From Escherichia coli (lineage in GTDB: Bacteria > Pseudomonadota > Gammaproteobacteria > Enterobacterales > Enterobacteriaceae), in the NCBI RefSeq assembly GCF_003334785.1, contig NZ_QOWV01000031.1: a stretch of DNA of 23,432 bases; one strand, written 5' to 3'. This document shows positions 11,201-14,200 of the stretch, one piece after another (position 1 is the first letter of the stretch; each line of letters begins with the position of its first letter). Made by a program: the position numbers.

Positions 11201-14200
11201 GTTCACGTGCGCCCAGCGAAGCACTGGCGCTAATTTTCAGACCGTTAACGCCAGTGCGTTTAGGGACAAATCCCAACCGTTTTACCAGCCAGGCAGCAGC
11301 GAGGATCAGGGCAATAATGGCGATGAGTGCGCCGCTCACCTGCAGCAGTGGCGCAGCAGAAACCGGCGCGGAAGATTGCACAGTAGCGTGGTTATTCATC
11401 ACTAACGGCTCAGGCGGCGCATTCGCTCAGACGGAGTAATGATATCGGTGATCCGCACGCCATATTTATCGGCAACGACCACCACTTCGCCCTGGGCAAT
11501 TAAATAACCGTTGATCAGAATATCCAGTGGTTCGCCCGCCAGACCGTCCAGCGCCACGACGGACCCTTGCGTCAGACGCAACAGCTCTTTGATGGTCATC
11601 CGCGTACGGCCCAGCTCGACGGTCAGCTTGACCGGAATATCCATAATCAGGTCGATATCCTGCAACGTTCCGCTGACATCACCACCGCCAAATTGCTGGA
11701 ACACCGCGTCGGCAGCGCTTTTGCTGCTGGTTGATTTTTGTTCGCTCAAAGCTTCAGCCCACAGATCGTCCATTGCGCCGTTGTTGTCATCGGCCGGATT
11801 ATTCATGTCACTCATTTGGGCTGTTCCTCGTTCAGAGAATTTAAAATCGGGTTAATCAAATGTTCTATCCGTAACGCATACTGACCGTTGAGGGTGCCGT
11901 ACTGACTGGTCAGTACCGGAACGCCGTCAACATGAGCGATGATGCGATCGGGTTTTTCTATCGGCAGGACGTCGCCGGGTTTCAGTTTTAAAATCTGCGA
12001 CAGGCGTAGCGAGATATCGGCAAAGTTGGCGACCAGCTCCAGCTGTGAATGCTGCACCTGGCGCACCAGGTTATCGCGCCAGTTCTGATCTTCATTACGC
12101 GAGTTTTCCAGCGGCGGGTTAACCAACAATTCCCGTAGCGGCTCGATCATGCTGAATGGCAGACAGATATTAAATTCGCCGGTCAGGTTGCCAATCTCCA
12201 CATGGAACGGCGTGTTAACCACAATGTCGTTCGGCGAGGTGGTGATATTGGTAAATTTCACCTGCATTTCCGAACGCACGTACTCAACTTCCAGCGGATT
12301 AATCGCCTTCCAGGCGTCGCTATAGCCTTCAAGCGCCAGCTTTAACATGCGGTTGATGACGCGCTGTTCGGTATGGGTAAACTCGCGACCTTCCACTTTG
12401 GTCGGGAAGCGTCCATCGCCGCCAAACAGGTTATCCACGGCGATAAACACCAGACTCGGTGAAAACACTACCAGCCCTGTGCCGCGCAGCGGTTTCAGAT
12501 GGATAAGGTTCAGGTTGGTCGGCACCGGCAGGTTGCGGGCAAATTCATGGTACGGCTGAATGCGGATGGCCCCGACGGTAATATCCGGGCTACGGCGCAG
12601 CAGGTTGAACAGCCCCATACGAAAATGGCGAGCAAAGCGCTCATTAATGATTTCCAGCGCCTGCAAACGTTCGCGCACAACCCGTCGTTGGGTATTCGGA
12701 TCGTACGGACGAATGTCACTTTCGCCGCTAACACTGGCTGTCGGTTCGTCTTTGACTTCGCTGTCGCCATTCAACAGCGCATCAATTTCAGCTTGAGAAA
12801 GAATACTATCGCCCATGTCGTTATCGCAGAATAAAAGCGGTATACAGCACGTCGGTGACATCCTGTTTCGGTTGCCCGGCAACAAGCGGGGTGGAAAGCG
12901 TGGTTTTAATCTCGGCAATCAGGTTTTTCTTGCCTTCTTCTGTCGCCAGTACGGCAGCATCCTGACGCGAAAACAGTAACAGCAAACGGCTACGGACTTC
13001 CGGCAAATACTCACTCAGCCGCGAGCGGGTAGCTTCATCTTTCAGGCGCAGGGTTATGCCGATATAAAGCACGCGATCCGCATCGCCCAGATTGACCGTG
13101 AAGGTATCCAGCGCGTAGAAGACCGGGGAGGGTACGACGCGTTGCTGCGCTTTGTCGTCAGCGGCAACCTGATGCGAATGCCAGTAGCTGTAACCTGCGC
13201 TGGCACAGGCCGCGAGGGTAATGAATACCAGAATCGGGATCCAAAGCGATCGCTTGCTTTTCTTGCTTATCGCGTAATCAGTCATGTGTTGCGGTCTTCC
13301 TGTGTCGCTACTGCTTATCGGCTAATTATCCTGCGTCTTGAGCGCAACAAAGCGGGGAAAAGACGCGGATTACGGTGCTACCTCTGACGTTAGGCGAAAA
13401 TATCAACGCCGCTGTTGCCTGTTACACGCCCTTGTAAAGAGACGGGAACCGGAAGCGTATCGTCGTCTTCCCCCGCCAGAGGTTCATGGTTTACTGTGCG
13501 TTGGCTTTGCTGTTGTTGGGAAGCGGCCTGCTGCTGACCACTAAAGCTTTCGCCACTGATGTTGCTTTGCCCTAACTGAATGCCACTTTCGGCCAGCTGC
13601 GTTCGCAGTACCGGAAGCGCTGCTTCCAGCGCGGCGCGTACATGCTGATGCGGTGAAACCATCTGGATTTGCGCCTGGTTATCATCCACTTTGAGGGAGA
13701 TTTGCACTTCACCTAAATCCTGCGGGCGCAGACGCAACTCTGCACTTTGTTGCCCCTGGCGGGTGAACAGCGAAATATGCTGGCTTAATGATTGTTGCCA
13801 TTCGTGAGAACCCAGCGGTGCACTCAAAACAGGCGCGGCGACGGTGGGCAGTGGCTGTGTCTGGTGTGGAGTAATTAGCGGGCTGGCGGCAGCGGTCACC
13901 GGTGACGGTGTGCTGATGACTTCCGCTTTACTCTGGGCTTCTGCTACCAGCGGTGTTAATGGCTGAGCTGGCGTGCCGGGGGCATCATCAGGCTGTGCTG
14001 TTGTGAGTTGCGCAGAAGTCAGTTTTGTGAAGAGCGTTGGTTTCTCTGCCGGTAACACGGTTGACGGCACATCAGTCACTTTGGGCGTATTGTCAAAACC
14101 CGGCAACATCGCAAAAAGGGCGCTCAGGCTTGCGGTGACGTCTTCATTCAGATCATCCGCTTTTTCGTCTTTTGCCGTATTGTTGCCAGCCACCGCAGCC

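Follow-up and report, generated by a model that had tools for sequence, protein, structure and literature searches.

The flagellar operons fliAZY, fliDST, flgMN and flgKL of Escherichia coli and Salmonella carry a promoter for the sigma factor FliA (sigma-28) and are also transcribed from FlhDC-dependent sigma-70 promoters. They are bound by FliA in vivo, yet deletion of fliA changes their expression less than 4-fold. The fliLMNOPQR operon resembles them in all of these respects. The region analysed here is the fliK-fliL intergenic region of a 23,432-nucleotide stretch of E. coli DNA (RefSeq assembly GCF_003334785.1, contig NZ_QOWV01000031.1; hereafter the window), which represents E. coli flagellar region III with the genes read on the minus strand. 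Open reading frame (ORF) calls and RefSeq gene names place this region at exactly 13286-13389 (104 nt). The sigma-28 element within it was assigned with high confidence as the documented FliA promoter of E. coli fliLMNOPQR, embedded in an FlhD4C2-activated sigma-70 class 2 promoter. It is the same object as the K-12 fliLMNOPQR sigma-28 promoter, with no difference in the promoter (Liu and Matsumura, 1996, Fitzgerald et al., 2014). The site, the binding of FliA and the dual classification were already known, and the finding is correct but ordinary.

The site was compared with three groups of described FliA sites. Among the dual-controlled operons, the site of fliA itself also holds GATAAT inside its spacer (TGCAGAAACGGATAATCATGCCGATAAC), as at fliL. 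The -35 start TCAAG of the fliL site is shared with flgKL, a genuine class 3 promoter, and with the modA site in the FliA chromatin immunoprecipitation-sequencing (ChIP-seq) table of Fitzgerald et al. (2014). The fliAZY, fliDST, flgMN and flgKL promoters are conserved across genera, are bound in Salmonella and can reach wild-type expression from FliA alone, unlike fliL, which responds most weakly of the dual promoters, falls when FliA is in excess and lacks conservation. Canonical class 3 promoters (fliC, tar, motA, tsr, flgM) share the TAAAGTTT-N11-GCCGATAA architecture, and the -10 of fliL is exact, but fliL is unlike them in its poorly matching -35 and in expression that is not FliA-dependent. 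Non-productive and intragenic FliA sites (Fitzgerald et al., 2014; bioRxiv 10.1101/188474) are, like the fliL site, bound with little or no effect on stable RNA and unconserved between genera. Unlike these, the fliL site is intergenic, is correctly oriented ahead of the start codon of a flagellar operon, and drives some transcription when FliA is overexpressed.

Identity and strength of the sigma-28 element

An earlier note on this DNA had proposed an exact sigma-28 -10 hexamer 29 nt upstream of the fliL ATG, accompanied by a weak -35. Both the presence and the distance were borne out: GCCGATAA matches the consensus at 8 of 8 positions (13322..13315, minus strand) and is separated from the ATG at 13285 by 29 nt (13314..13286). 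The word hexamer did not stand: the element, an octamer, belongs to the window's minus strand. The -35 is indeed weak, with TCAAGACG matching TAAAGTTT at 4 of 8 positions, and its spacing to GCCGATAA is exactly 11 nt, the canonical sigma-28 value. The order on the minus strand is CGTCAGAGGTAGCACCGTAATCCGCGTCTTTTCCCCGCTTTGTTGCGC-TCAAGACG-CAG-GATAAT-TA-GCCGATAA-GCAGTAGCGACAC-AGGAAG-ACCGCAACAC-ATG. The sigma-28 consensus is quoted in the literature as TAAAGTTT-n11-GCCGATAA; a window search that tolerated as many as 3 mismatches to this consensus gave no match, because the fliL -35 carries 4. The promoter of aer, another sigma-28 promoter, is abolished by single -35 substitutions.

The 28-mer TCAAGACG-N11-GCCGATAAG of the window (TCAAGACGCAGGATAATTAGCCGATAAG) is letter-for-letter the motif published for the fliLMNOPQR ChIP-seq peak. 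In MG1655 this FliA peak lies at 2017629 with a FAT score of 18 and its motif is centred at 2017601 (NC_000913.2), the expected motif-to-peak offset at fliL being ~25 nt (Fitzgerald et al., 2014). Over the 104-nt intergenic region the window and MG1655 agree at every position (100%). The window differs from MG1655 at 95 positions over the surrounding 5250 nt, none of them in the promoter, and so derives from a non-K-12 E. coli. Of the 5172 complete E. coli genomes with the 50-nt promoter core (13349..13300), 5051, O157:H7 and Nissle 1917 among them, have it without a mismatch.

A match to the fliK-fliL segment was lacking from ~253 of 5426 complete E. coli genomes. Two matches fell on plasmid-typed records and a few genomes held two copies.

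Fitzgerald et al. (2014) classed fliLMNOPQR as a dual-regulated operon and cite Liu and Matsumura (1996) for FliA-driven transcription of fliL. Later literature uses fliL as 'a representative Class 2/3 promoter', and another paper draws both sigma-70 and sigma-28 elements on the fliL promoter. The supplements of Kim 2012 and Cho 2014 give neither a start site nor a sigma-28 entry for fliL (b1944), and fliL is not mentioned in Zhao 2007 or in the 2020 Salmonella FliA preprint.

The dual class 2/class 3 input to fliL suggested in the earlier note is thus supported by published experiments on identical sequence, namely FliA ChIP-seq and the Class 2/3 classification. Dual control holds at the level of binding and of the capacity to transcribe, less certainly at that of physiology. 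The 1996 study of Liu and Matsumura was reportedly in essence a primer extension on fliL in fliA-plus and fliA-minus backgrounds.

Motif strength was scored with a position weight matrix (PWM) built from 24 high-occupancy FliA ChIP-seq sites (FAT above 4; Fitzgerald et al., 2014), from which fliL was excluded. Scoring was restricted to the -35 and -10 columns because the spacer columns carry almost no information; with all 28 columns the fliL site ranked only 10th. With the restricted matrix the site scored 13.6 bits (2.6 for the -35 and 10.9 for the -10), rank 2 of 46,810 window positions. All but one of the training sites scored 14-27 bits. Windows simulated with a first-order Markov model held 0.48 matches of this strength each, corresponding to ~0.0008 expected in the 104-nt leader in the right orientation. 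By count the bare 8-mer GCCGATAA is unremarkable: the window holds 3 where 0.93 are expected, a number that 7 of 100 shuffles attain. The other two exact copies, at 11473..11466 in fliN and at 5514..5507 (both minus strand), are both without a -35 by PWM.

The top PWM match of the window is TAAATATGGCGTGCGGATCACCGATATC (11441-11468, minus strand, 16.2 bits), which has a good -35. It sits in the 3' end of fliN in sense orientation, ~40-70 nt before fliO, and overlaps the exact GCCGATAA copy at 11466-11473 (minus strand). The motif is identical in MG1655, yet it is missing from the 52 published FliA ChIP-seq peaks (Fitzgerald et al., 2014).

Several points weigh against the assignment of the fliL site as a FliA promoter. 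The -35 is poor and the total score lies under that of 23 of the 24 training sites, which makes 'exact -10, weak -35' an accurate description. A stronger motif in fliN is unbound in vivo; sequence alone is therefore no predictor of occupancy, and occupancy at fliL may partly reflect context. The near-perfect conservation within E. coli is not specific to the sigma-28 element, as the whole leader is equally conserved. The position of the FliA-dependent start is taken on citation of Liu and Matsumura (1996).

The overlapping class 2 promoter and its output

The class 2 promoter was located from position and conservation. Its putative -10, GATAAT, is a 5/6 match to TATAAT and lies inside the sigma-28 spacer. 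A scan of 13200-13520 found no consensus sigma-70 -35/-10 pair; the absence of a -35 partner is expected because the promoter is activator-dependent. The published FlhDC consensus is AAYGSSNNAAATAGCG-N10-12-CGCTATTTNNSSCRTT and is degenerate according to its authors. In the 181 nt upstream of fliL its best match covers 19 of 28 positions at 13391..13349, a score reached by 2.7% of shuffles. This candidate box begins in the fliK stop codon, extends to ~-32 of the predicted sigma-70 start and coincides with a conserved block. By our own coordinate mapping, the centre of the FlhD/FlhC ChIP-seq peak for fliL (2017573) is ~15 nt from it.

The 'FlhDC box' listed for fliL from genomic systematic evolution of ligands by exponential enrichment (gSELEX, 2023) was also considered. 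It maps with 2 mismatches to 13110-13153 (minus strand), inside the fliL coding sequence and ~130-175 nt past the ATG, not in the promoter block. It was rejected and is apparently an artefact of motif finding.

With the usual spacing, the sigma-70 start would be expected at ~13319-13317, inside GCCGATAA, and the sigma-28 start at ~13309-13306, about 10 nt further downstream. In the proposed mechanism FliA-RNA polymerase would recognise TCAAGACG-N11-GCCGATAA (13341..13314) and transcription would begin roughly 7-9 nt past the -10, giving a sigma-28 leader of ~23 nt; both the sigma-70 and the sigma-28 leader would retain the AGGAAG ribosome-binding site of fliL. From this overlap geometry, with GATAAT in the sigma-28 spacer and a predicted sigma-70 start inside GCCGATAA, we infer mutual exclusion of the sigma-70 holoenzyme with FlhDC and the sigma-28 holoenzyme (E-sigma-70/FlhDC and E-sigma-28).

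Published expression data are dominated by FlhDC. FlhD and FlhC ChIP signals at fliL have FAT scores of 38 and 27, respectively, and lie just upstream of the FliA site, and fliL RNA was 509 in wild type versus 1-2 in the flhD and flhC deletions, a >100-fold dependence (Fitzgerald et al., 2014). In the same study fliL RNA was 989 in wild type versus 980 in the fliA deletion (normalised reads). Overexpression of fliA in an flhD deletion raised fliL RNA significantly, the least of all dual targets, and overexpression in a fliA deletion lowered it 2.1-fold; the authors speculated that competition with the upstream sigma-70 promoter lay behind this drop. FliA-dependent fliL activity in a published lacZ fusion was undetectable. 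The FliA holoenzyme binds, can initiate a little and makes no measurable net contribution at native levels. The FliA input to the fliL promoter is marginal in vivo, and the drop on fliA deletion that marks class 3 behaviour is not seen in the literature.

Conservation and role of the site

A genome scan with FliL provided 67 fliL loci from Enterobacteriaceae and Erwinia, with no Salmonella locus among them. Exact GCCGATAA at the homologous position was found at 8 of these only. They comprise every one of the 5 Escherichia-type loci, namely those of E. albertii, E. whittamii, cryptic clades and two 'E. coli' species representatives, together with 3 of Citrobacter amalonaticus type. The 8 loci scored 11.7-13.6 bits by PWM; nearly all others scored <7 bits within 130 nt of fliL, except three at 8.2-9.0 bits. 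Table 1 gives, segment by segment, how far 54 unique non-Escherichia sequences agree with the window. GATAAT stands at -41 to -47 from the ATG in 62 of 65 loci and is invariant in an alignment of 12 genera. In that alignment the bases -CC-ATAAGC within and after the 8-mer are kept or nearly so across genera, and the two G positions that complete GCCGATAA are variable. At G13319, the most informative base, Citrobacter and Pseudescherichia show all four nucleotides; the natural allele of C. sedlakii, for example, is GCCCATAA, with C at this position.

The sigma-28 element is therefore not conserved at orthologous fliL promoters in this set of loci. In the published record fliL is the only flagellar FliA promoter without sequence conservation, and there is no FliA ChIP signal in S. 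Typhimurium. The lineage restriction seen here independently reproduces that non-conservation. The pattern suggests that a segment conserved for other reasons, probably as the sigma-70 start region, lay two substitutions from a sigma-28 -10 and gave rise to the site. The comparative alignment leads us to infer that the site is young, a near-match already present having been completed in the Escherichia lineage, and that it is not an ancestral, selected class 3 input.

A displaced sigma-28 -10 in other genera was considered in GTACCGAAAC/GTACCGATAC, which is conserved 13 nt further downstream. These scored 2-8 bits by PWM with no -35, and a start from them would land on or past the Shine-Dalgarno sequence. 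The candidate was rejected.

The role of the site was weighed against these data. Conservation within the species does not discriminate among the readings, as the whole leader is equally conserved, and the choice between negative feedback and neutral overlap had already been posed by Fitzgerald et al. (2014). It is quite conceivable, although we put it forward tentatively, that the site is a neutral by-product, in which a segment past the sigma-70 -10, conserved for the class 2 start and initial transcribed region, drifted to an exact match in Escherichia and is bound without consequence, as happens at the many intragenic FliA sites that are non-productive. This would account for the retention of -CC-ATAAGC across genera while the two completing G positions vary, for the presence of all four bases at G13319, and for the lack of an expression phenotype. 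It also agrees with the published position of fliL as the sole non-conserved flagellar FliA promoter and with the published observation that most novel E. coli FliA sites, intragenic and intergenic, are likewise unconserved. It sits less easily with ChIP occupancy at a FAT score of 18, well over most incidental sites. The exact 50-nt core in 5051 of 5172 genomes, together with retention of the -10 in all five other Escherichia-type loci, also speaks against neutrality, weakly so since the leader is equally conserved.

Physiologically meaningful, positive class 3 input is unlikely. In such a scheme FliA freed at completion of the hook-basal body would allow E-sigma-28 to sustain or boost fliLMNOPQR as FlhDC activity falls, the effect being condition-specific and the two inputs additive, the latter as implied by the earlier note. 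FliA does occupy the site by ChIP-seq, overexpression of fliA in the flhD deletion lifts fliL RNA over the deletion level, and fliL-gfp is in use as a Class 2/3 reporter; class 2 promoters are also dual-input in the network model of Kalir and Alon, as cited by Fitzgerald et al. (2014). However, fliL is unchanged by fliA deletion (989 versus 980) and shows no FliA-dependent lacZ activity, its rescue by fliA overexpression is the smallest among the dual targets, and in the fliA deletion background overexpression makes it fall 2.1-fold. An element that is missing in most Enterobacteriaceae and unbound in Salmonella cannot be a core design feature.

Selected negative feedback by promoter occlusion is a doubtful reading as well. 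Here E-sigma-28 would bind, initiate poorly and block FlhDC/E-sigma-70, lowering transcription of C-ring and export-gate genes once FliA is free. The effect on expression is no more than 2-fold and confined to overexpression, and at native levels deletion of fliA leaves fliL unaltered; the site lacks conservation beyond Escherichia, and Fitzgerald et al. (2014) gave no rationale for targeting these genes. The geometry described above, with GATAAT in the sigma-28 spacer and a predicted sigma-70 start inside GCCGATAA, is what occlusion would require, our analysis counts fliA overexpression as lowering fliL in the flhD and fliA deletion backgrounds, and Fitzgerald et al. (2014) speculate on competition. 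The neutral, occlusion and positive-input readings are not mutually exclusive.

A more specific evolutionary form of occlusion is rather improbable. According to this, Escherichia and, independently or by shared ancestry, the C. amalonaticus group completed a latent near-match on the sigma-70 start, and the selected role is occlusion by FliA freed at hook-basal-body completion, turning down synthesis of the C-ring and export gate. If true, the site would give the flagellar cascade a negative feedback arm particular to the genus, and not class 3 activation.

A pure chance match unrecognised by FliA, with which the non-significant 8-mer count and the absence of ChIP peaks at the two other exact copies and at the higher-scoring window motif would agree, is highly improbable and is refuted by the direct FliA ChIP-seq peak with an identical motif at ~25 nt offset, the intergenic region being identical to that of the strain used.

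At native levels, then, no FliA input to fliL is detected; when forced, the input is mildly negative, and most related genera lack it. The discovery itself carries little weight, since the site, its FliA binding and its dual class are in the literature and on standard E. coli promoter maps. For genome scans it holds a caution: an exact sigma-28 -10 before a flagellar operon marks a real binding site here, and binding does not equal regulation.

Other features of the window

Feature coordinates are collected in Table 1. Downstream of fliL the operon continues with fliM, fliN, fliO, fliP, fliQ and fliR, down to 9224 (ORFs, with RefSeq names on identical or near-identical DNA). No intrinsic-terminator-like structure was found between fliK and fliL in the scan of 13200-13520, so by sequence read-through from fliFGHIJK into fliL is possible.

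Table 1. Features of the fliK-fliL region, with identity of promoter segments to the window across 54 unique non-Escherichia sequences
Feature	Coordinates	Strand	Basis and remarks	Identity
fliK coding sequence	13390..14517	-	ORFs, RefSeq names; final gene of the upstream fliFGHIJK operon	
Probable FlhD4C2 box, AACGTCAGAGGTAGCA-N10/11-(C)GTCTTTTCCCCGCTT(T)	13349..13391	-	Best consensus match; putative assignment	79% and 85% (half-sites)
Sigma-28 -35, TCAAGACG	13334..13341	-	4/8 versus TAAAGTTT; within published FliA motif	44%
Putative sigma-70 -10 hexamer of class 2 promoter, GATAAT	13325..13330	-	Inside sigma-28 spacer; role suggested by position and conservation	98%
Sigma-28 (FliA) -10, GCCGATAA	13315..13322	-	Exact 8/8 octamer; PWM; published ChIP-seq motif	62%
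Predicted start-site zone	13305..13319	-	Usual 7-9 nt spacing from -10 to start	
fliL Shine-Dalgarno, AGGAAG	13296..13301	-	Sequence; conserved across genera	92%
fliL coding sequence	12821..13285	-	ORFs, RefSeq annotation of identical DNA; first gene of fliLMNOPQR	

Further FliA-like sequences were noted elsewhere in the window. The GCCGATAA copy at 5507-5514 (minus strand) is antisense within a 569-residue ORF at 4870-6579 (plus strand) and scores -6.7 by PWM. The same ORF holds a FliA-like motif of 13.2 bits on its sense strand at 5088-5115 (plus strand). No published FliA ChIP peak corresponds to either motif. This ORF is probably the diguanylate cyclase gene dgcQ/yedQ, going by the K-12 gene order.

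Among the six strongest window matches to the -10 columns only, 4 are on the sense strand of fliM or fliN. Examples are GCCGATATC, GCCGATAGA, GCCGATGAC and, in fliN, GCCGATAAA; such matches lie at 12013-12040, 11957-11984 and 11786-11813, all on the minus strand. None has a -35. Translated, they give everyday codons (for example Ala-Asp-Ile), and the matches are therefore probably coding-driven.

Irregular records were encountered among the fliL loci. In the 110 nt upstream of fliL, Buttiauxella agrestis ATCC 33320 (L024) and B. massiliensis (L054) both lack the conserved FlhDC block and GATAAT and carry unrelated sequence upstream of ~-30. The standard promoter is retained in a further B. agrestis record (L042) and in other Buttiauxella. 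A rearrangement or insertion directly ahead of fliL in L024 and L054 may account for this, or else the presence of two fliL loci. An enterobacterial fliL locus is also present in the record CACSKA010000001.1 (L018), which bears the title 'Chryseobacterium sp. 18061'; upstream of fliL it has the same sequence as 'Citrobacter sp. 18056' (L014) from the same project. The assembly is probably mislabelled or contaminated.

A search with Rfam found no RNA family in the fliK-fliL intergenic region. The sole match in the window was the DsrA small RNA gene at 7589-7675 (plus strand; RF00014, 102.5 bits, full length), whose place between the rcsA side and neighbouring ORFs is the one expected in this region of E. 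coli.

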